DNA of 45,022 bases from Candidatus Saccharimonadales bacterium (GTDB lineage: Bacteria > Patescibacteriota > Saccharimonadia > Saccharimonadales > UBA4665): contig DASPHS010000039.1 of assembly GCA_035629475.1 (NCBI GenBank), positions 1 through 45,022 of the forward strand. The letters are read 5' to 3'. Positions 1 to 28,059 of this stretch are shown here, one piece after another; the first letter of the stretch is position 1; each line of letters begins with the position of its first letter. Made by a program: the position numbers and the translations under genes. The notes under the pieces were generated by a model. The model worked only from the letters and a program-made list of their open reading frames with translations, searched no databases and was not told where the DNA came from.

Positions 1-140
1 GTGGACGCAAGGTTTTCATTTCTTTTATCAACCACCACCTTGCAAATATGCTGGTGCATACAGTGAACGCTGACGGGTATAAATAACCGCTAACGTAGAC
101 CTTGCCAGTATAGTAGAGGGCTGAATGTTAAGGAGTTGAG

Positions 141-434
141 GTGCTTGATAACACTCTATATAATGAAAGTACTATGGCAGTGCGTAAAGACAACGAAGCA
201 AACGGCGAAGCAAACTACACTATCAATAATGGTGATTTACGGGCGCTGAATCGGATAAAAGAGCAATACCACCTCACCGATAGCGATGATGTGCTGGTAT
301 TCGCCATTGGCCTGCTCAGCCAAAGCAACGGCCGTGCCGTGACTGTCGAAAAGGACGATGGTTCGTTTGTAAAGCTGCTTCCTGCCGATGAATTACGCCG
401 GTCAGAAGACGACCATGAATCAAGAACAGAATAA
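141..434 (+). CDS. hypothetical small acidic protein (97 aa)
   Basis: GTG start at 141 preceded by AAGGAG at 130-135; uninterrupted 97-codon frame; no motif recognised. Confidence 0.5.
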   Translation: MLDNTLYNESTMAVRKDNEANGEANYTINNGDLRALNRIKEQYHLTDSDDVLVFAIGLLSQSNGRAVTVEKDDGSFVKLLPADELRRSEDDHESRTE

Positions 435-771
435 CACCTCAAATCCTATCCCTGGTCCTCAAGACGACCAGTATAAGCGCGGCACTAAGGCTGTTGTGGA
501 TGATGCTATGCGCATGGACGTTCTGGGTCCAAAAGTTGTTACCGTTCTCCAAAAGTACACGCCAGCCGGCAACGAGCTTAAGGACCAGATGCTTAAGAAT
601 CTTAAGGACGAAGAAATTAAAGAAGCTATTGTGAAGATCGTTAGTGTTCAACAGGTTACTGATACCGGTAAAACCACTAACAAGTACAAAGCTCTTATAA
701 TCACGGGCATTATAGGTACGGCTGTCGGGGTGATCGTTACCTGGAGTGTCGGTAAGTTGTTGCAGCCATAG
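415..771 (+). CDS. hypothetical protein with C-terminal membrane anchor
   Basis: Frame open from ATG 388. The second ATG at 415 (MNQEQNN...) shortens the overlap with the upstream gene. C-terminal hydrophobic helix ALIITGIIGTAVGVIVTWSVGKLL. Start uncertain. Confidence 0.5.
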   Translation: MNQEQNNTSNPIPGPQDDQYKRGTKAVVDDAMRMDVLGPKVVTVLQKYTPAGNELKDQMLKNLKDEEIKEAIVKIVSVQQVTDTGKTTNKYKALIITGIIGTAVGVIVTWSVGKLLQP

Positions 772-1040
772 CTTTGTAGTCCTGGCTGATGAGAACGAAC
801 AAGCGGTGCGCCGAAGATATGCAGTACCAGCCAGGTAGTGTAACTATTACGAAAGCGGTGCTGTAAGGATTAATGATATGTAATTTATACGATGTTGATC
901 TCGGGGGCAAAATTCGGAAGATGATCTAAGGTATTAAGGTAACGTGGTGTCTGCTCTTTATCGCCACCAACCCCACAAGCGCGGACTCCTATAGTCTCGA
1001 TCCATTTGTGTTATGTGAGAGTAGTTACTAACCGTAACCC

Positions 1041-8395: not shown

Positions 8396-8718
8396 TGGCT
8401 CCGGGGACTGGATTCGAACCAGCGACCTAGTGGTTACACTTATCTCCTACTTTCGTAGGGGCGTGGACTATATCATCACCCTTCTCCTTTCGGAGTGAGG
8501 GGCAAGGCGCTTCCCATCTTGCAAAACAGCTGCAAAACAGTACTTCCGTAAGGAATAGTCTCTGAACCTTCTCGTACTTGTCGTGTGGACGAGCTTGGCT
8601 GCGGATTAGCATATTCAAACGAACGTAGCTTTCCCGCAATTCACCTTGTTTTCACTAAGCAGTTTCTCACTTAGGCTGCCATTGACAGCCACCCGCTCTA
8701 CCGCTGAGCTACCCCGGA
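8396..8718 (-). tRNA. tRNA-Asn(GUU) interrupted by a group I intron in the anticodon loop; CCA encoded
   Basis: Exons 8718-8685 and 8436-8396 join into a 75-nt cloverleaf: UCCGGGG UA GCUC AGCGGUA GAGC G GGUGG CUGUUAA CCACU AGGUC GCUGG UUCGAAU CCAGU CCCCGGA G CCA. U1-A72 and G73 as in E. coli tRNA-Asn. Confidence 0.85.
8437..8684 (-). ncRNA. group I self-splicing intron, 248 nt, no ORF
   Basis: Core elements in order: P GAAUUGCGGGAAAG (8642-8629), Q AAUCCGCAGC (8607-8598), R GUUCAGAGACUA (8567-8556), S GAUAUAGUCC (8474-8465). P/Q and R/S are complementary. P1 pairs exon GGCUGU with intron GCAGCC, giving a U.G wobble at the splice site. The terminal nucleotide is G. Confidence 0.85.
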
Positions 8719-10452: not shown

Positions 10453-11382
10453 CTACTTGCGTAGTTCTTCGCTGACCGTGACCCACGTTGTGGGGTCTTG
10501 TAACACTTTGAGGCGCCAGTACCACCATTCGCCTCCCCAAATATCTATGGGGTAGAGGTTGGTGCGCTTGGCCAGGCGGACATTGGCCTTGATGTGCTCG
10601 GTGCCCATTGATTTATCTTGTTCTGGTATCTGCATTTTCCAGATAGCTGTCGGACCCCACGGTTCCAGCTGCAACTCATGTACGAAGCTGGGCTTGGCAT
10701 GGAACAGCTGAATGCCCAGTGCTCGCGCACGGTCGAGCATCGGAAAGTGAAAGGCATGATGATACCGTCCCTGTCCATACAGGATCCGATAAAAAGAAAA
10801 ACCCACAATATCTGGTACGGGTTTACGCATGGGAATTCCCCAGGAGGTGCTGGTGGTCATAATAACCGGACGGTGCGGATCAAGCCGCTTGACCAGATTG
10901 TACTCACTGCGTAGGCGTGCGCGGTCGACCTCGGGCTTTTCGCCGAAAGCCTTCAGCAGCGCCTCGTTTTCCAGCTGGTAGCTCACGATGTGATCGTAAT
11001 CCTTATAGCGTTGCACGACTGCTTCAATATAGCGTAGCAAGGCCCGACTGCGTTCGTTCTTGGGAGCTTCCCAGGCCCATTTGGGCCAGTGGTTTTCCGG
11101 CCAGCGCGGTTGGCGGGCGCCCAAACACAAAGTAATAAGGCAGCCGTTGCGGCGGGCGAGTTCAATTTGCCAATCAAGCTGCGAAAAGTCGTACACTCCG
11201 GGCTGTTTTTCGTGTTCGTTCCAGTAGCTCATCAGACGGAAGCGCCTGAAGCCGGCCTGCTCGATAAGCCAACGCATCGTTTCTTTGGGGTCTATGCCAA
11301 AGCTGCGGCATTGTTTTACTGAGAAGCTGACGCCGAACTTTTGCGGGTCGATGATGCGCGGGGTGTCTACTGGTTTTGCCAT
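10453..11382 (-). CDS. clan GH-A-like (TIM-barrel) glycoside hydrolase, no signal or anchor
   Basis: FRLMSYWNEHE..PGVYDFSQLDW; acid/base-type motif YQLENE; second conserved Glu in HELQLEPWG; paralogue of the next gene. Confidence 0.6.
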   Translation of the reverse strand: MAKPVDTPRIIDPQKFGVSFSVKQCRSFGIDPKETMRWLIEQAGFRRFRLMSYWNEHEKQPGVYDFSQLDWQIELARRNGCLITLCLGARQPRWPENHWPKWAWEAPKNERSRALLRYIEAVVQRYKDYDHIVSYQLENEALLKAFGEKPEVDRARLRSEYNLVKRLDPHRPVIMTTSTSWGIPMRKPVPDIVGFSFYRILYGQGRYHHAFHFPMLDRARALGIQLFHAKPSFVHELQLEPWGPTAIWKMQIPEQDKSMGTEHIKANVRLAKRTNLYPIDIWGGEWWYWRLKVLQDPTTWVTVSEELRK

Positions 11383-11400
11383 ACGATGAGTATACCTTGG

Positions 11401-12528
11401 TTACTTGTTGCGGAATGTATCTTTGGCTACATTCCAGAGGCTTGGATCGTCCTGGACTACCATGCGCGAATACCAATATTCAGCCCCCCACAAGTACATT
11501 TCACGCATTCCAGTCGCTTTACCGAATTCGACTCGGTGTGCAAAACGCTCAGCGCTAAACGATTTGTCGGCCTCAGTGACACTGATTTCATTCAGGTGCT
11601 TGCCGCGTGGCCCCCATGACTCTGCTTGGAGCTCATGAATCATCATGTCCTGCCCTGTCATGAGTTTTTGCCAGCCAGCTACAAAACCGTAGTACCAGGC
11701 CGGGAATGGATATTCCAGGTAGCGTTTCGTCAGCTGGGCGTCCCATACACGTTTGTAAATCGAGATGCCGTACTCATCGGGAGTCGGTTCGCCAACTGGC
11801 CAACCGAGCGCGTTATTACTCCGGTTAATAATAACTTTGTGGTCGGGATCAAGCGCCTTGACGAGCTTATACTCACGAACCAGGCGTTCACGGTCCATCG
11901 ATCCAGGGATTTCTTCGCAGTTGCCAAAGCCCTTTAGGAAAAACTCGTTTTCTACCTGGTAACTATCAAGTGCTGGCGAGTCCTTGTAGCGTTCCACCAC
12001 CTTGCCCATGTAGGCTTCGAGATGTTGCTGCCACACTGCCGGGTCTTGCTGGCGGGCCCAATCAGGCATATGGCATTCTGGCCACCGTGGCTGCCGCAGG
12101 CCAAGCGATAAGGTTATTTTGGCGTCGGCCTGCTCTGCTTTGCGGAACTGCCAGTCCAGCTGTGAAAAGTCGTAGGTACCCTGTTGGGGCTCTGCCTGAT
12201 TCCAGTAACTCACCAGGCGGAAGTGACGAATGCCGACGTCGTTTATCAGGGCGTCCATTGTTTCCTCGGGGTCAACACCCAGGCTTTCGGCGTAAGCGGG
12301 TATAAATGAGGCGCCCATAATGAGTGGCTTATCGGCCGAAGTTGTTATGTACCAGCGGGCGATGCCATACATGCCAGCCAGGAGTATGAGCCCGATGCTG
12401 ACCGTCACGACGACAACCTTATGCCACCAGGAGTGCGCCCAATAGCGCCGTAGCCCGCGAGCAGCAGCTTTAGGGAGCTTCTTTAAGGTGGTAGGCAGCT
12501 GGGACATGTAGGATGAATGTTTAGTCAT
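11401..12528 (-). CDS. clan GH-A-like glycoside hydrolase, membrane-anchored paralogue
   Basis: FRLVSYWNQAE..QGTYDFSQLDW, YQVENE, HELQAESWG; N-terminal TM VVVVTVSIGLILLAGMYGIA. The listed start at 12564 is GTG; ATG 12528 or 12507 are alternatives. Confidence 0.6.
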   Translation of the reverse strand: MTKHSSYMSQLPTTLKKLPKAAARGLRRYWAHSWWHKVVVVTVSIGLILLAGMYGIARWYITTSADKPLIMGASFIPAYAESLGVDPEETMDALINDVGIRHFRLVSYWNQAEPQQGTYDFSQLDWQFRKAEQADAKITLSLGLRQPRWPECHMPDWARQQDPAVWQQHLEAYMGKVVERYKDSPALDSYQVENEFFLKGFGNCEEIPGSMDRERLVREYKLVKALDPDHKVIINRSNNALGWPVGEPTPDEYGISIYKRVWDAQLTKRYLEYPFPAWYYGFVAGWQKLMTGQDMMIHELQAESWGPRGKHLNEISVTEADKSFSAERFAHRVEFGKATGMREMYLWGAEYWYSRMVVQDDPSLWNVAKDTFRNK

Positions 12529-16374: not shown

Positions 16375-16467
16375 CCCTGTACTGACGCTGTTAGATTTCC
16401 CCTATTCCTTCATCGATCCTGCAGTATTGCCCGGCTGCACTCTGTGATATTGCACACAAATTACTCT

Positions 16468-22918: not shown

Positions 22919-23341
22919 ATGAAATTTGAATTAGTATCGCTCGATGGTGTGAAGTTCAGCGAAGACGCCTACTCGGTTGTCTTACCAACTGCCGCCGGTC
23001 AGATTACGGTCATGCCTGGCCACGAAGCACTGCTGAGTGTTGTCGTGCCCGGCGTGATCACCATCCGCCGCAGCAAGGGTGACACCGAAGCACGGCTTGA
23101 ACACTTTGCCACCTTTGGTGGCGTGCTCGAAGTCGGCGATGACTACGCCCGGGTACTTGTTGACGAAGCCACACATGGTGATGACGTCAATGAGGCCGAG
23201 GCTGAAAAAGCCCATCAGGCCGCGCTCGAAGTCCGCAAAAACGCCAAAGATCAGGTTGAGCTGGAAAAAGCCCAAGCAATGGTTGACCGTCAGGCAGTCC
23301 GCCTGGCTGTGGCACAAGTCCGCCGCCGCAACCGTCACTAG
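22919..23341 (+). CDS. atpC: F1 ATP synthase subunit epsilon
   Basis: N-terminal beta-sandwich pattern (LVSLDG...MPGHEALLS) and a C-terminal helical hairpin; last gene of the operon. Confidence 0.9.
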   Translation: MKFELVSLDGVKFSEDAYSVVLPTAAGQITVMPGHEALLSVVVPGVITIRRSKGDTEARLEHFATFGGVLEVGDDYARVLVDEATHGDDVNEAEAEKAHQAALEVRKNAKDQVELEKAQAMVDRQAVRLAVAQVRRRNRH

Positions 23342-23355
23342 GAACGGTGCGCAAT

Positions 23356-23390
23356 AAAAAACACCCTCACTTGAGAGGGTGTTTTTTATT
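23356..23390. terminator. bidirectional intrinsic terminator
   Basis: AAAAA ACACCCTC acttga GAGGGTGT TTTTT between atpC (+) and the convergent 307-aa gene (-). Confidence 0.8.
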
Positions 23391-23403
23391 GGAGGTATTT
23401 CCG

Positions 23404-24327
23404 TTAGGCGTGCTGGACACGCTGCAGGTACTGAACGCCAAGCGGCATATTTGGCTCCGCCAGGGGCAAGTTCAGGATGGTCTTGGCGGTAAACACAGCC
23501 ACTGCATCGCGCATGGACTGGTACTCTGCGGCGCTGCGGCCCATGAAAGTGCCCATAGCGTCGTGTACGCGCTCCAGGTGTCCCATGCTGACGTGGTAGG
23601 CCTTGCCGCCGAGCTGCCATGATGCCATAGCATCAAAAGTGTGCCGGGGGTCGTCATTGATGGCGACGATACCAGCTTCGTGCTTGAGGTCGCCGATAGG
23701 TACGCGTGGAATCCCGCCCTTGATAGGCACCAGGAGCCCTCGCTCATTGCGCTCCCAGGCATTACCTTCGGGTGGGGTCATGGTCGGCTGGGAGACCCCA
23801 GCGTCACGTACGTGTTTAATTGCCATATAAGCCAGGCTGTCTGACACTTGGTCGAAACGGTCTTCGCTCATATCACTGAACTCAGCAACGTGTGCCAGAG
23901 CAGCTTTGCGCTGTCGGGCAGCGCTACGCTCTTCTTCAGGGGTCATGCCCGGTAGCTCGACGCCGGTGAGGGCGATGGCCTTCATGCCTAAGGCTGCGGC
24001 ACAGCTTTCGTGGTTCAGGCCAAGGATTCCTCTCGTCTCTAGGGCAATTTCGGTAATAACCGCCAACTGGTCAACGGCGCGGGCTATGCCGCCACTCGCG
24101 GCATCGAAGCCGCCGTTTTTCATGTTCATGCCGGCGCCATAGGCGAGCGCCAGGCCATATTGGCCGCCAAAGAATTGCACGCCACCGTGTGGCCAGCGGT
24201 CGTCTCCACAGCCAGCCGGCATCAAGATGCCATCTTTACGCAACGCATCGAAGTCGGCTTCGGTCCACATAGGACCTGCTTCAGGTAATTTATAGGGTAA
24301 CGGGGCGCGTTCCATCACATCGCTCAT
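23404..24327 (-). CDS. hypothetical protein A (307 aa), CxDxR...HxxC motif, paralogue of 26163-27116
   Basis: AAGGA 7 nt upstream of the ATG. AGCGDDRWP (C40, D42, R44) and NHESCAAALG (H106, C109). No TM segment. Confidence 0.65.
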   Translation of the reverse strand: MSDVMERAPLPYKLPEAGPMWTEADFDALRKDGILMPAGCGDDRWPHGGVQFFGGQYGLALAYGAGMNMKNGGFDAASGGIARAVDQLAVITEIALETRGILGLNHESCAAALGMKAIALTGVELPGMTPEEERSAARQRKAALAHVAEFSDMSEDRFDQVSDSLAYMAIKHVRDAGVSQPTMTPPEGNAWERNERGLLVPIKGGIPRVPIGDLKHEAGIVAINDDPRHTFDAMASWQLGGKAYHVSMGHLERVHDAMGTFMGRSAAEYQSMRDAVAVFTAKTILNLPLAEPNMPLGVQYLQRVQHA

Positions 24328-24398
24328 AAGTACATCCTTTGGCGTTATGGTTTATATTTGTGTCGTACAAAAAGTATAGTATAGCACCGGCATATACA

Positions 24399-24427
24399 TT
24401 GAAAAATAGCATTTATCATTGTAATAT
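24399..24427 (+). promoter_or_regulatory. sigma70-like promoter for the 399-aa gene
   Basis: TTGAAA (24399-24404), 17 nt, TAATAT (24422-24427) in the AT-rich divergent intergenic region. Confidence 0.45.
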
Positions 24428-24449
24428 ATACAAATTCTATGAGGATGTT

Positions 24450-25649
24450 ATGAGTAGCCCGGAAGAAACGGTGAACCGCTTCCCTTTGCCCCTAGGTTTG
24501 GTCGAGGCACATTTAGGTGCGTTTACAGGGTTTAATGATGCGCAGCTGGACATGATAGCTCGCTCGAACGAGCCCGAAGAGCGAATAAACGATGCTTCGC
24601 CCCTGGGCCATTTGTGGGATTTCAAGGAAGACACCATGTTCTCCCACCTGACCCGGTTTACTAATGACCGTCTGTCCTACCAGCAAGTACTGCCACCGAT
24701 GCGCGCCTATCGGGCTGCTGTCTGTCTGGGGGACATCCTGATGCGTGCCCGCGAAGACCAACTAGTGGACCAGGGCTATGCAGTCGACCCGGTCCGGCTC
24801 GACCCCTTGCGACATTACCTGCTGCTGCCCGAAGGCGAGCGTGGTGACGAGGCTGGGCGGTTCCGGGGTGAGCGCTTCCTCGAAGACCTGACAAGACAAT
24901 ATGGTGCTACTGCGGTACGACACGGCTATTTTGAGCAGGACGCAGCTGTTGAAGCTTTGGCTGCGCTGCGCGATGGGTGGCAGCAGTCCGAAATGCAGTA
25001 CCTCTTTCCGACTGCCGAAGACCCGGCAAACTTTTTTGGTGAACTGTGCCGGGGTATGTTCCAATTGCTACGTCTGTACAAAATTGGCGAAGCTGAGGCT
25101 ACAGTGGCGCCATGGACGGACAGCAGTTTTGATGCTGCAAGACACTTTATAACTGGCGACAGAGAGACCGTGCCTGATATTGACTACTTTCGGAAATTCC
25201 GGCGTCTGAGTACCGATACCCAGTTGGCCTATGCAAATGGTACCCATGGTGAGGCCTGTGGCTATGGGGCACTGCCCGCTGGCGCAGCGGCTGTGGCGAT
25301 CCGAAGCTACCTGATCGGTATGGTTCCGGCGGCACCGGGACGATTAATGGAAGTTGGGTTTAAGCGGAGCGTACGGACATTCGAGCTAGGACCTGATGAT
25401 GCGCTCGTGGTCAGTGACGCTGCTGATGTATCAGAACTTGTGCGCTACCCTTTTGTAAGCCCTGCGACCGACCCCGAGGGGCTTGAGCCAACGATACAGG
25501 CACTGTGCCGGGATGGTCGCACGATCCCTCTGTACTCACCTATGAGCCCGCCACACGACTCGTTCTATGCCGCTATCGATGAGGCGCATACTGGTACGTC
25601 GCCGTTGTATGAACTCGGTGTCGAGAAAGTAAAAGGCGGGTCGACATGA
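24450..25649 (+). CDS. hypothetical protein (399 aa)
   Basis: Start moved to ATG 24450 (GAGGA 4 nt upstream; MSSPEETV). Long uninterrupted frame; no motif recognised; no TM segment. Confidence 0.65.
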   Translation: MSSPEETVNRFPLPLGLVEAHLGAFTGFNDAQLDMIARSNEPEERINDASPLGHLWDFKEDTMFSHLTRFTNDRLSYQQVLPPMRAYRAAVCLGDILMRAREDQLVDQGYAVDPVRLDPLRHYLLLPEGERGDEAGRFRGERFLEDLTRQYGATAVRHGYFEQDAAVEALAALRDGWQQSEMQYLFPTAEDPANFFGELCRGMFQLLRLYKIGEAEATVAPWTDSSFDAARHFITGDRETVPDIDYFRKFRRLSTDTQLAYANGTHGEACGYGALPAGAAAVAIRSYLIGMVPAAPGRLMEVGFKRSVRTFELGPDDALVVSDAADVSELVRYPFVSPATDPEGLEPTIQALCRDGRTIPLYSPMSPPHDSFYAAIDEAHTGTSPLYELGVEKVKGGST

Positions 25650-25675
25650 GTGAACTTAGGCGTTTGCGGATGTGC

Positions 25676-25975
25676 CTACTCCACCGAACGGGACGCGGAT
25701 TCGGTAGACAGTACCTGCCCGTAGGTGGCAGTCAGCTGCTCGATATCCTTAAAATGGCCGAGTGTCATGAGGCCAGCAACTAACCCGTCAAAAGCGGCGG
25801 CCCGCTGCAACGGGTCCGGAAACTTGGATTGCAGGAATGGCCGCATGGCCATAGCTATGCCGTGAAACTCACGATTCACCTGTATCCAGCCCTGGTTTTT
25901 TAAGTCAGAAGATGAGAGGCTTTTGAGCCAAACCCTTACTGCCTCGGTTGCTGGGTCGGGTAGCTGCTGGCTCAT
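25676..25975 (-). CDS. hypothetical small protein (99 aa)
   Basis: AAGGAGGTGATT precedes ATG 25975 (MSQQLPD); predicted helical; no motif recognised. Confidence 0.6.
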   Translation of the reverse strand: MSQQLPDPATEAVRVWLKSLSSSDLKNQGWIQVNREFHGIAMAMRPFLQSKFPDPLQRAAAFDGLVAGLMTLGHFKDIEQLTATYGQVLSTESASRSVE

Positions 25976-26070
25976 AATCACCTCCTTGTTGTACTTTTAC
26001 TGTAGCAATAAAGCCTGAGCAATAGCTGTGTTATTCGTCACGCCCTCATGTACGCTCTATTGCCGTTTCC

Positions 26071-26100
26071 TTGCGTATATTTTATAAGCAGGCGTATAAT
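26071..26100 (+). promoter_or_regulatory. sigma70-like promoter for protein B
   Basis: TTGCGT (26071-26076), 18 nt, TATAAT (26095-26100). Confidence 0.4.
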
Positions 26101-26162
26101 CAACGCTGATACACAGTCCCCCGGGACGTATAAGTACTAACCAGTAAACAGAGCTATTTTAT

Positions 26163-27116
26163 ATGCAAACTACTATGGGCCAGATTGACACTGCTTCCGT
26201 ACAGGAAGTACAAATCGGTGACTTTATTGTTACCCGCATCGCTGACGACTTGAGCTGGGGCGTGGGCAGTATTCAACCCCAGGATGGTCTGAATAATGAC
26301 GCCGACCAGCAGCGCCTTATTGAAACGGTGATTGCCAGTCTCAGCCGGGTCAATGCAGCCGAACTTGCCTACTCTTCCTGCACTGATGGCCGCTTGCCCA
26401 TCAAGCTACTCGACGGCGAAGCTGTGCCCGTGCGTGAACAAATTGTCGGCACCGATACCATGCTCTTCTTCCATATGGCTGAAGCACTTGGATCCCGCTT
26501 TTACAAGGACCCGAACGAACCGCTTGCTGAACGTATTCAGGAAGTCATTGCCTTTATGCGCGATAGCGGCCTGGTTCCTTGCACGCACGTTGCCTGTGGG
26601 GCGGCCGCCGGGTACGTGCCTATCAACGAAAACTTGGTGCGCTTTACTGCTGAGCCCAAGTTTGCAGCCCGCCAGCAAGCGCTCCTGCCTGAGGGTGTGT
26701 ATGACGAATCGCTCCGCGCCACTATTACCAAGGGCTACCAGGATCGCCTGGAGCGCGGTGCATACGCTGACTGGAGCGACGCTTTGCTTATGGAAGCAGT
26801 CAAGACCGCCAGCGGCGACCATGCTATTGCTGAGCTGAACGACGACCAGCGTGGCGTGCATGGCCACGTAGAAGAACAGATTGTGCGCATTCAGGTTGAT
26901 GGCCTGGCTATCAATGAGACGCAAGTGTGTGCTCGCACGAGCGGTCGTGAAGTATTTGGCGTCAACGATTTGCGCTTGCAGCGCCATGCCCAGCTGATCG
27001 GCCGTGGCCAGGAAGAAGATTACAAGATAGCACTTATGGCGGCCGAGGACTTTACCGATGGCGGCCATGGCACACTTGCCAAAGACCTCCCCACCTACAT
27101 TGTTCGTGCTATCTAG
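26163..27116 (+). CDS. hypothetical protein B (317 aa), CxDxR...HxxCG motif, paralogue of 23404-24327
   Basis: SSCTDGRLP (C73, D75, R77) and THVACGAAAG (H142, C145). Further blocks shared with protein A at matching spacing. The antisense 239-aa ORF is judged spurious. Confidence 0.65.
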   Translation: MQTTMGQIDTASVQEVQIGDFIVTRIADDLSWGVGSIQPQDGLNNDADQQRLIETVIASLSRVNAAELAYSSCTDGRLPIKLLDGEAVPVREQIVGTDTMLFFHMAEALGSRFYKDPNEPLAERIQEVIAFMRDSGLVPCTHVACGAAAGYVPINENLVRFTAEPKFAARQQALLPEGVYDESLRATITKGYQDRLERGAYADWSDALLMEAVKTASGDHAIAELNDDQRGVHGHVEEQIVRIQVDGLAINETQVCARTSGREVFGVNDLRLQRHAQLIGRGQEEDYKIALMAAEDFTDGGHGTLAKDLPTYIVRAI

Positions 27117-27144
27117 ACGCCACACCGTGGCACATCTCGGGCGG

Positions 27145-27202
27145 ATCAGATGCGCTCCGCATTCACCGTACTCAAGTACGGCTCACTTGCGGTACTCCTG
27201 TC
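27145..27202. repeat. copy 1 of the conserved roughly 58-nt hairpin element
   Basis: atCAGATGCGCTCCGCAttcaCCGTACtcaaGTACGGctcactTGCGGTACTCCTGtc; nested stems CCGCA/TGCGG and CCGTAC/GTACGG. Confidence 0.6.
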
Positions 27203-27264
27203 CCATCCCAAGCTGCACACACGCTGAGCCGTCTTGAGCTCGAAATTATATGTGCGTCTTCGTC

Positions 27265-27285
27265 ATTCCTGATGCGTTCAGGAAT
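27265..27285 (+). other. 8-bp perfect hairpin without a U tract
   Basis: ATTCCTGA tgcgt TCAGGAAT in the long intergenic region before the aquaporin gene. Confidence 0.3.
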
Positions 27286-27387
27286 CTAATCAATTATCGT
27301 GTCCCTTGTGATACATAATCGGCAATTATTTACAAACACCCCTGTTTAGTTTACGCTGAGGGTAAGAACTAATCTTACGGAGGGTAT

Positions 27388-28059
27388 ATGATAACAAGAC
27401 GTAAAATCGCCATGATTGCGGCGGAGTTTTTGGGTACCGGGTTATTGACCCTGATTATCCTGGCTGTTGGCCGCTCGCAATTGGGCGCACCATACTTTAT
27501 AGGTATCGCTGCGGGCTTGACGCTCGTCATGGCGACACTTGTCCTGGGCCGTGTATCCGGTGCTCACTTGAACCCAGCAATCACCATTGGCCTATGGTCG
27601 GTGCGGCGCATTAAGGCTGTCCCTGCTATCGTGTACATCGCTGCCCAGATCATTGGTGCAGGTGTTGCCTATTTCTTGTACAGCTATCTGGTAGGTCAAA
27701 CATTGGAAAACACGACTGCCGGATTTGAGGGTAAGGTGCTGGTGGCGGAAGCTGTCGGTGCATTTGTCTTCAGCTTGGGCTGGGCGGCCGTTGTCTACCA
27801 GCGCCTCGAAGGCGGCCGTGCCGCTACGGTATTGGGTGTTTCCCTGATGCTTGGCATGCTGGTTGCAAGTGTTGGTATGGGTCTGTACGTCAACCCTGCA
27901 GTTGCGCTGGGCGCTCACTCATGGGTCTGGGGTACCTACGCTCTTGGTCCGGTGCTTGGTGCGATTATCGGGTTCAACCTGTACGGACTGCTGTTTGCTC
28001 CTGAAAAAGAGCTGACTGATGCCGCAGAGGCAAGTGCCCGCCGCAAGACAATAAAGTAG
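27388..28059 (+). CDS. MIP-family channel (aquaporin/glycerol facilitator-like)
   Basis: Two NPA boxes (HLNPAITIG, YVNPAVALG), six hydrophobic segments, GGAGGG upstream of the ATG. Confidence 0.9.
   Translation: MITRRKIAMIAAEFLGTGLLTLIILAVGRSQLGAPYFIGIAAGLTLVMATLVLGRVSGAHLNPAITIGLWSVRRIKAVPAIVYIAAQIIGAGVAYFLYSYLVGQTLENTTAGFEGKVLVAEAVGAFVFSLGWAAVVYQRLEGGRAATVLGVSLMLGMLVASVGMGLYVNPAVALGAHSWVWGTYALGPVLGAIIGFNLYGLLFAPEKELTDAAEASARRKTIK

Follow-up and report, generated by a model that had tools for sequence, protein, structure and literature searches.

A block of four genes at positions 23404 to 27116 of a 45,022-nucleotide (nt) stretch of Candidatus Saccharimonadales DNA (contig DASPHS010000039.1; the whole stretch is called the window here) lies between the atp operon and a gene for a MIP-family channel. 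We denote the genes A, C, D and B in the order of their coordinates. Profile homology identifies B as a single-domain, very divergent relative of the repeat found in zeta-class carbonic anhydrases (CDCA1, PF18484), and A as a still more divergent paralogue in B's superfamily. We favour, with moderate confidence, the reading that the block is a composite locus in which B and A are divergent zeta-type homologues and B is a Cys2His hydratase, probably for CO2. An earlier note on this DNA, made from the letters alone, had described a mirrored, self-contained module of four genes and had put it forward as an undescribed system; the synteny of 19 loci, just three of which hold all four genes, lends support to neither idea. 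The orphan-looking block resolved into a conserved core and an accessory insertion once related loci were compared. The genes are as follows (lengths in amino acids, aa; ORF, open reading frame).

23404-24327, minus strand: A, 307 aa, from the ORF call; distant CDCA-like (zeta carbonic anhydrase-like) paralogue of B
24450-25649, plus strand: C, 399 aa, from ATG 24450; partner of A, without a recognisable domain
25676-25975, minus strand: D, 99 aa, conserved small protein, divergent from B
26163-27116, plus strand: B, 317 aa, CDCA-like (zeta carbonic anhydrase-like), predicted Cys2His metal site
27388-28059, plus strand: MIP-family channel (aquaporin/glycerol facilitator type), directly downstream of B on the same strand; PF00230 in orthologues

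The four ORFs, their orientations and sizes and their arrangement as two divergent pairs agree between the earlier note and the ORF list, and each pair does consist, as described there, of one paralogue and one unrelated partner.

Relationship of B and A to zeta-class carbonic anhydrases

Searched directly against Pfam, NCBIfam, PADLOC and PHROGs, none of A, B, C and D gave a match, and the PDB sequences, searched by phmmer with A, B and C, yielded nothing. The four proteins had been called unrecognisable, and this holds for direct family matches; it does not hold for profile methods, which put A and B in the CDCA superfamily. The homologues of B number at least 218 in the database; those with a source name are without exception labelled 'hypothetical protein' and come from Candidatus Saccharimonadales or Patescibacteria. 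In a search of 1.84 billion proteins the B-family profile recovered 129 representatives (50% identity clusters, E ≤0.001), 41 of them at E ≤1e-30. The distant tail of these matches (above about E 1e-15) consists mostly of proteins close to full length, at about 300 aa, of which nearly all contain CxD[GE]R, and the B-branch members whose context was examined or whose source is named all come from Saccharimonadales-type loci.

A Pfam scan of 73 distant B relatives revealed matches to PF18484 (CDCA, the repeat of cadmium carbonic anhydrase) in 14, among them P0219 (39.8 bits), P0221 (38.6), P0241 (35.9) and P0227 (32.2), all above the Pfam gathering threshold of 29.2 bits; the Pfam model already tags a few of these proteins automatically. 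In the best scorer, P0219, the match spans positions 1-173 of 184. The B-family profile reaches the same four proteins at E 7e-6 to 8e-5 in the 1.84 billion, hhalign aligns the B family with the PF18484-positive group over 260 columns (probability 99.6%, E 1.3e-24), and the hidden Markov model (HMM) of that group matches B of the window at E 5.6e-21. Searched against the PDB, the profiles A3 (an alignment of the superfamily) and A6 have CDCA1 as their best match (3boh, E 0.003 and 1.2e-4; then 3uk8 and 3bob), and profiles of the distant relatives are collinear with the CDCA1 crystal sequences at KCVDGR and GSHAEKVVYIN...QRFIVDGW. The B-family and A-family profiles themselves returned only noise from the PDB.

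Gene order ties the proteins bridging B and CDCA1 to B itself. The genes of P0219, P0221, P0258 and P0174 come straight after atpC, in most cases with a small gene on the minus strand in between; three of them are followed by a MIP gene and every one by the same helicase. Judged by position, the Pfam-positive relatives are positional orthologues of B. Across these loci AtpD is 77-81% identical against 23-27% for B, which argues that B is an old, fast-evolving resident of the locus.

The residues invariant in 74 B-family sequences include C73-T-D75-G-R77, H142, C145-G146-A147, D228, H235, E237 and E238, with R242, R262, D269, R271, E295 and H302 in addition. The combination CxDxR...HxxCG, the zinc signature of beta carbonic anhydrases, was the starting lead for B; assignment to the beta class gave way to the CDCA link obtained from the scan of distant relatives, as Pro_CA (PF00484) was never matched and Foldseek gave no match in PDB or BFVD. 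In the third repeat of the diatom enzyme (CDCA1-R3), Cys473, His525, Cys535 and a water coordinate the metal, and Asp475 and Gly536 hold the metal-bound water (PMC8217695); the Asp/Arg dyad of CDCA1 is common to beta carbonic anhydrases (PMC8217695; PMC4413181). The alignment pairs these residues as follows.

CDCA1-R3 Cys473: B C73
CDCA1-R3 Asp475: B D75
CDCA1-R3 Arg of the Asp/Arg dyad: B R77
CDCA1-R3 His525: B H142
CDCA1-R3 Cys535: B C145
CDCA1-R3 Gly536: B G146

All six B residues are invariant in 74/74 sequences. The loop between the His and the second Cys is 9 residues long in CDCA1 and about 32 in P0219; that of B, with 2 residues, has the beta-like HxxC spacing.

The affiliation of A emerges at the level of the superfamily. 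Only three homologues of A are present in the database, and the motifs of this small family are G39-C40-G-D42-D-R44-W and N105-H106-x-x-C109-A. BLASTP of A against B (E = 1) leaves the paralogy invisible, and direct profile-profile comparison of the two is borderline, from E 0.11 (hhalign, 4-sequence A family) to E 0.008. Against the superfamily alignment A3, hhalign places the A family with a probability of 95.6% (E 1.2e-8, 215 columns) over a region that takes in the CxDxR, H..C and H-E motifs and the C-terminal helix, and the A3 HMM matches A at E 3.3e-6 and the A-like protein of a related locus (L027) at E 1.3e-7. The distant paralogy of A and B, which the earlier note had suspected by eye, is thereby upheld. 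At the predicted site of A, C40, H106 and C109 are invariant in 4 sequences, D42 and R44 are kept, and Ala110 stands in place of Gly.

A conserved D/B core and an accessory A/C pair

Related loci (numbered L001 and upward) were fetched by exact-protein look-up, one genome scan and one metagenome scan. We compared A, B, C, D, atpC and MIP by tblastn with 33 loci, and added ORF, HMM and HMM-to-HMM comparisons; synteny counts refer to the 19 distinct Saccharimonadales loci, the window included, that span the whole atpC-to-B interval. Their conserved order begins with atpC and a variable slot (0-3 kb), after which come D (minus) and B (plus) in divergent orientation, a MIP channel and usually an AddA-like helicase. 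Occupancy is as follows.

D present: 16/19 loci
A/C-type divergent pair: 6/19 loci (window, L005, L006, L012, L019, L027)
A, B, C and D together: 3/19 loci (window, L006, L019)
Variable slot empty: 6/19 loci
Variable slot with different genes: the remaining loci of the 19

B occurs without A/C in 13/19 loci, and by tblastn the MIP gene lies downstream of B in nearly all. The comparison shows D/B(/MIP) to be a vertically conserved core and A/C an accessory, lineage-restricted occupant of the slot. Because the D/B core stands without A/C in most loci, the block is composite and not a self-contained four-gene module. Of the co-occurrence and fixed order that the earlier note had proposed to look for in related genomes, the D/B part held (16/19), and the A/C pair (6/19) and the full set (3/19) did not. 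The ancestral Saccharimonadales order to which the comparison points is atp operon, terminator, variable slot, D(-)/B(+), MIP channel and AddA-like helicase.

The A gene always adjoins atpC in the relatives, and A-type paralogues are paired with a C-type partner in 6/6 cases. Further CDCA-like paralogues occupy the slot in L002 (B2, E 5e-29), L031 (E 5e-31) and L013 (E 4e-25); those of L013 and L031 belong to one family, different from A of the window. A divergent pair also follows atpC in L015 (3118-5472) and L017 (408-2345), comprising a minus-strand CGDDR/CSDDR protein and a plus-strand partner of 391-442 aa. No homology of these to A and C was detected, HMM searches finding nothing and hhalign giving E 0.0015-0.0025; they may be an extremely divergent A/C-type pair.

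D is found by tblastn at 38-58% identity in the same position and orientation. The family members are about 95-112 aa long, and W16, L17, W30, N34, R45, P46, F62, D63 and G64 are invariant in alignment A5. Ten D-family proteins had no Pfam match; a weak match of the D-family profile to a ribosomal protein in the PDB (E 0.009) was judged spurious. The small minus-strand genes found at the D position in L034, L035 and L038 have no detectable homology to D. B stands without D in L005, L012, L027 and L037; within the 19 loci, the ones lacking D are those with a C-like gene immediately beside B (L005, L012, L027). The atp and helicase genes of L005 (ENA contig_20456) are broken up into numerous pieces, so that its assembly probably contains frameshift errors; the absence of D there is real all the same, because only 165 nt separate C and B and the operator described below is kept. 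Inserted genes part D from B in L001 and L031. The insertion in L001 (7648-9840) encodes a 730-aa protein with an N-terminal hydrophobic segment, and downstream of B in this locus an ORF that by eye we presume to be of sigma-70 type (11023-12114) takes the place of MIP.

C has one close homologue in the database, and divergent members of its family adjoin the A-like genes in L005, L006, L012, L019 and L027. The C family alignment, which has no invariant polar or catalytic residues, is that of a fast-evolving protein. Ten C-family proteins had no Pfam match, and hhalign found no relation of the C family to the A and B families. The idea of C as a permuted CDCA domain was rejected since the strings that had suggested it, 'CRDGR' and 'HGEACG', are not conserved in the family. 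The C-like proteins of L012 (2034-3620, plus strand) and L019 (4019-5500, plus strand) are longer (493-528 aa) and have a hydrophobic C-terminal end that is absent from C of the window; it could be a C-terminal membrane anchor. On a 2.2-kb contig (L008), a 306-aa ORF (6-926, plus strand) lies directly upstream of a C homologue, has C-terminal motifs in common with C (ALCRxGxxIPL) and looks like a tandem C paralogue.

Promoters, flanks and gene starts

Both divergent intergenic regions of the block contain promoter candidates, at the positions given below.

24399-24427, plus strand: C promoter from the scan, TTGAAA, 17 nt, TAATAT with an upstream TG
24405 to 24378, minus strand: candidate A promoter, overlapping the C promoter on the other strand
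26000-26008, minus strand: predicted extended -10 of D, TGCTACAGT on the minus strand
26027-26042, no strand assigned: CRP/FNR-type palindrome, TGTGTTATTCGTCACG, consensus TGTGt-N6-TCACa (also written TGTG-N8-CAC)
26071-26100, plus strand: B promoter, TTGCGT, 18 nt, TATAAT

The candidates at 24399-24427 and 26071-26100, which the earlier note had already picked out, are present and conserved in related loci: TTGaAA-N17-TGTAAaAT recurs in 7 A-C intergenic regions, and of 15 aligned loci, 14 keep TTG...GTATAAT of the B promoter almost unchanged. A further block conserved in the 15 aligned D-B intergenic regions, ACTGTAGCA, reads as the extended -10 of D. About 20 loci, the distant L035 and L038 among them, have the palindrome, as TGTG-N7-TCAC, in this place between the genes. 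It stays with D where D and B are separated (L001, L031) and is kept in L005 though D is lost there.

The distance from the palindrome to the D -10 is fixed at 20-22 nt, so that the palindrome centre falls at about -41.5 from the predicted D start (near 25993); the distance to the B -10 varies from 40 to 76 nt, and the centre lies at about -72 from the predicted B start (near 26107). Class II CRP/FNR promoters have a site TGTGA-N6-TCACA centred at -41.5. We infer for the D promoter a class II CRP/FNR-type architecture, with a predicted start and a putative regulator of that type; no Crp-family regulator is present among the ten window proteins of about 176-266 aa that were scanned against Pfam. 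A second TGTG-N7-TCAC, at 16444-16458 (minus strand) in AT-rich sequence upstream of the atp operon, was set aside as being at chance level (1.7 expected), and it is not conserved upstream of the atp operons in other loci.

Homologues exist for all four ORFs, and each is a real gene. The frame of C is open upstream as far as TTG 24339, and its start is placed at ATG 24450 on account of the ribosome-binding site GAGGAT and the N-termini of homologues. The ribosome-binding site of D is AAGGAGGTGA; B has no clear one, and its ATG-CAA start is kept among homologues. The ribosome-binding sites claimed by the earlier note are confirmed, as is the lack of transmembrane segments: the maximum 19-residue hydropathy is ≤1.5 in each of the four, where the MIP protein reaches 2.18, and the four proteins look cytoplasmic. 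In G+C content and base composition the four genes match their neighbours and look native.

The flanks of the block are as had been described, with a terminator on one side and hairpins and repeats (27145-27285) on the other.

23356-23390, no strand assigned: bidirectional intrinsic terminator between the convergent atpC and A, a perfect G+C-rich hairpin between an A-run and a T-run
27117-27387, plus strand: B-MIP spacer of 271 nt; most relatives have one of roughly 70-95 nt

A terminator scan recovered the minus-strand version of the first hairpin. The B-MIP spacer contains small hairpins (27178-27232 and 27265-27285) and short direct repeats, with an RNA fold z of -2.6; neither a terminator prediction nor an Rfam match was obtained in it, and Rfam over 23300-27420 gave nothing at E ≤1.

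Two observations concern other parts of the material. Unannotated ORFs of about 40-190 aa without a Pfam match lie between the ATP-synthase genes in many Saccharimonadales loci (L002, 3052-8358; L003, 5897-6317; L006, 11318-18065; the atp operons of L034 and L035). In the window, the anticodon loop of a tRNA-Thr(UGU) gene (8396-8718, minus strand) is interrupted by a 248-nt group I intron (Rfam RF00028, 8444-8694, 91 bits); ARAGORN sees this gene only with introns allowed, and its default run finds no tRNA in the window.

Proposed function and comparison with known systems

B, and probably A, are predicted from their sequences to be cytoplasmic Cys2His-metal hydratases, probably for CO2. As a cytoplasmic Cys2His zinc enzyme, B would use a metal-bound hydroxide to attack CO2 or a CO2-like linear molecule (CS2, COS), the expected reaction being CO2 <-> bicarbonate + proton. 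The conserved same-strand adjacency of B and MIP suggests an enzyme working with a channel, in this case one for a small neutral solute (CO2 or water), and the setting would be CO2, bicarbonate and pH balance beside the genes of the proton-translocating ATPase. D would be driven by a promoter that depends on the CRP/FNR-type site at about -41.5, and B by its own -35/-10 promoter. A would be a second, specialised copy with C as its partner; C would be a rapidly evolving, non-enzymatic-looking protein specific to A-type paralogues, perhaps an adaptor or modulator.

Several points weigh against the reading that we favour. The link to the true diatom CDCA is modest (32-40 bits), B has no Pfam CDCA match even at E ≤1 (A likewise), and many other superfamily members also lack a PF18484 match. 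B is about 100 residues longer than the CDCA repeat, with a helical insert at roughly 146-217. The AlphaFold2 model of B is of high confidence (predicted local distance difference test, pLDDT, 93.6; predicted template modelling score, pTM, 0.91; about 11 strands and about 11 helices). Foldseek, which the earlier note had recommended, found no significant match for it in the PDB (best E 1.1, template modelling score ≤0.15, no CDCA1 among the top 50) and no match in BFVD; the model of A, built from 4 sequences, reaches a pLDDT of 39.5. To our knowledge, few bicarbonate-requiring pathways that would call for a carbonic anhydrase are known in Saccharimonadia, and the linkage of B to MIP and to atp may be inherited gene order without functional coupling.

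The failure of Foldseek on a high-confidence model, together with the lack of a direct Pfam match for B, would be expected if B were an unrelated new fold whose CxDxR...H..CG pattern and weak CDCA scores arose by convergence or chance. We find this scarcely credible given the 99.6% hhalign probability across 260 columns with proteins whose scores exceed the CDCA gathering threshold, the several collinear motifs in common with the CDCA1 crystal sequences and the fact that the bridging proteins are positional orthologues. A different role on a CDCA-type metal site has a modest but real chance of being correct: B and A might hydrolyse CS2, COS or cyanate-like compounds, or sense metal, CO2 or bicarbonate. 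CS2 is also hydrolysed by CDCA1 (PMC8217695). A housekeeping carbonic anhydrase would not usually diverge as fast as the B orthologues do (23-27% identity against 77-81% for AtpD), the repeated gain of paralogues at this locus suggests diversified specificity, and the family has extra invariants of its own (H235, E237, E238, R242, R262, D269, R271, E295, H302) and a large helical insertion. Against such a role stand the full ligand set, the Asp-Arg dyad and the Cys-Gly, exactly as for CO2 hydration in the zeta and beta classes, and the H-x-E and F-x-V-D motifs in common with CDCA1.

The remaining alternatives concern the partners. That the four genes form one self-contained system, possibly conflict-related and built of two mirrored enzyme-partner pairs, accords with a mirrored layout that is real, with the recurrence of all four in L006 and L019, with the pairing of A-type and C-type genes in 6/6 cases and the usual company of B and D, and with A and C being fast-evolving occupants of a variable slot, as accessory or conflict genes often are. 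We nevertheless regard it as very improbable: all four genes occur in 3/19 loci and B lacks A/C in 13/19, B stays where D is missing (L005, L012, L027), inserted genes split D from B in L001 and L031, the D operator tracks D and not B, no PADLOC or PHROGs match was found, and the composition is native. Compatible with the composite locus that we favour, though unlikely, is the proposal of enzyme-modulator pairs, in which D would act on B and C on A, whether by activating or inhibiting the enzyme, as a metallochaperone or as a localisation factor. Divergent D-B adjacency, conserved in 16/19 loci, the similarly sized small genes in that place in L034, L035 and L038 and the strict coupling of A-type and C-type genes speak for it, and the hydrophobic C-terminal tails of some C-like proteins could tether a complex to the membrane. 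It is harder to reconcile with the lack of detectable homology between D and the small genes of the distant lineages, with the loci in which B has no D (L005, L012, L027, L037) and with the lack of invariant functional residues in C.

In reviews, the zeta class of carbonic anhydrases is given for diatoms alone, and bacteria are credited with just the alpha, beta, gamma and iota classes (PMC7215798; PMC8425729); our literature search turned up no account of zeta-like enzymes from bacteria or Saccharibacteria. Set against this diatom-only listing is a large, very divergent bacterial branch with the full catalytic signature at one fixed locus. If the proteins are active, the known range of the zeta class would take in bacteria besides diatoms, the single-domain form, with its HxxC spaced as in the beta class, would form a bridge between beta and zeta active sites, and reduced-genome episymbionts would gain a CO2/bicarbonate/pH function missed by present annotation. 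A bolder extension, which we think quite improbable, is that Saccharimonadia universally carry a bacterial zeta branch tied to the atp operon, an aquaporin and a CRP/FNR-like operator, with paralogues each recruiting a private fast-evolving partner (C, perhaps D); it would amount to a new enzyme-plus-modulator CO2/pH module of episymbiotic bacteria, possibly the source of the diatom enzyme.

Among known systems, the locus differs from anti-phage defence and toxin-antitoxin systems in having no PADLOC/PHROGs match and in the vertical conservation of D/B at a fixed site. With the beta class (PF00484 Pro_CA; E. coli Can/CynT) B has in common Cys-x-Asp-x-Arg...His-x-x-Cys-Gly and, as predicted, Cys2His zinc chemistry, and the CDCA repeat is reported to mimic, in its structure, a dimer of beta carbonic anhydrase (PMC4413181). 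Unlike the beta class, A, B and the 73 relatives have no Pro_CA match, Foldseek finds no match to beta structures, and B is longer, with C-terminal lobe motifs of CDCA type.

The closest likeness is to CDCA1 of Thalassiosira weissflogii (PF18484; PDB 3BOB, 3BOH, 3UK8), to which B is related by homology through a chain of profiles. Both have the same motif order (C-x-D-G-R, His, Cys-Gly, H-x-E-(x)-V-V, F-x-V-D) and keep the Asp-Arg dyad as well as the Cys/His/Cys ligands; the domain, in B as predicted, has two lobes, and the ligands lie in its N-terminal half. CDCA1 is a diatom protein of three tandem repeats of about 210 aa; the A/B family is bacterial, from Saccharimonadales, and single-domain, of about 300-320 aa. 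The B-type protein has helical inserts totalling roughly 70-100 residues and is in appearance cytoplasmic, without a signal peptide. Its His and second Cys lie 2 apart, as H-x-x-C in beta carbonic anhydrases, unlike the 9-residue gap of CDCA1. The CDCA fold has nine strands and seven helices in two lobes, against about 11 of each in the B model, which has no Foldseek match to CDCA1, and the B family falls below the detection of the Pfam model. The D promoter in turn resembles class II CRP/FNR promoters: its 16-bp palindrome fits 8-9 of 10 half-site positions, a likeness by consensus only, and stands at a fixed 20-22 nt from an extended -10 with no -35.

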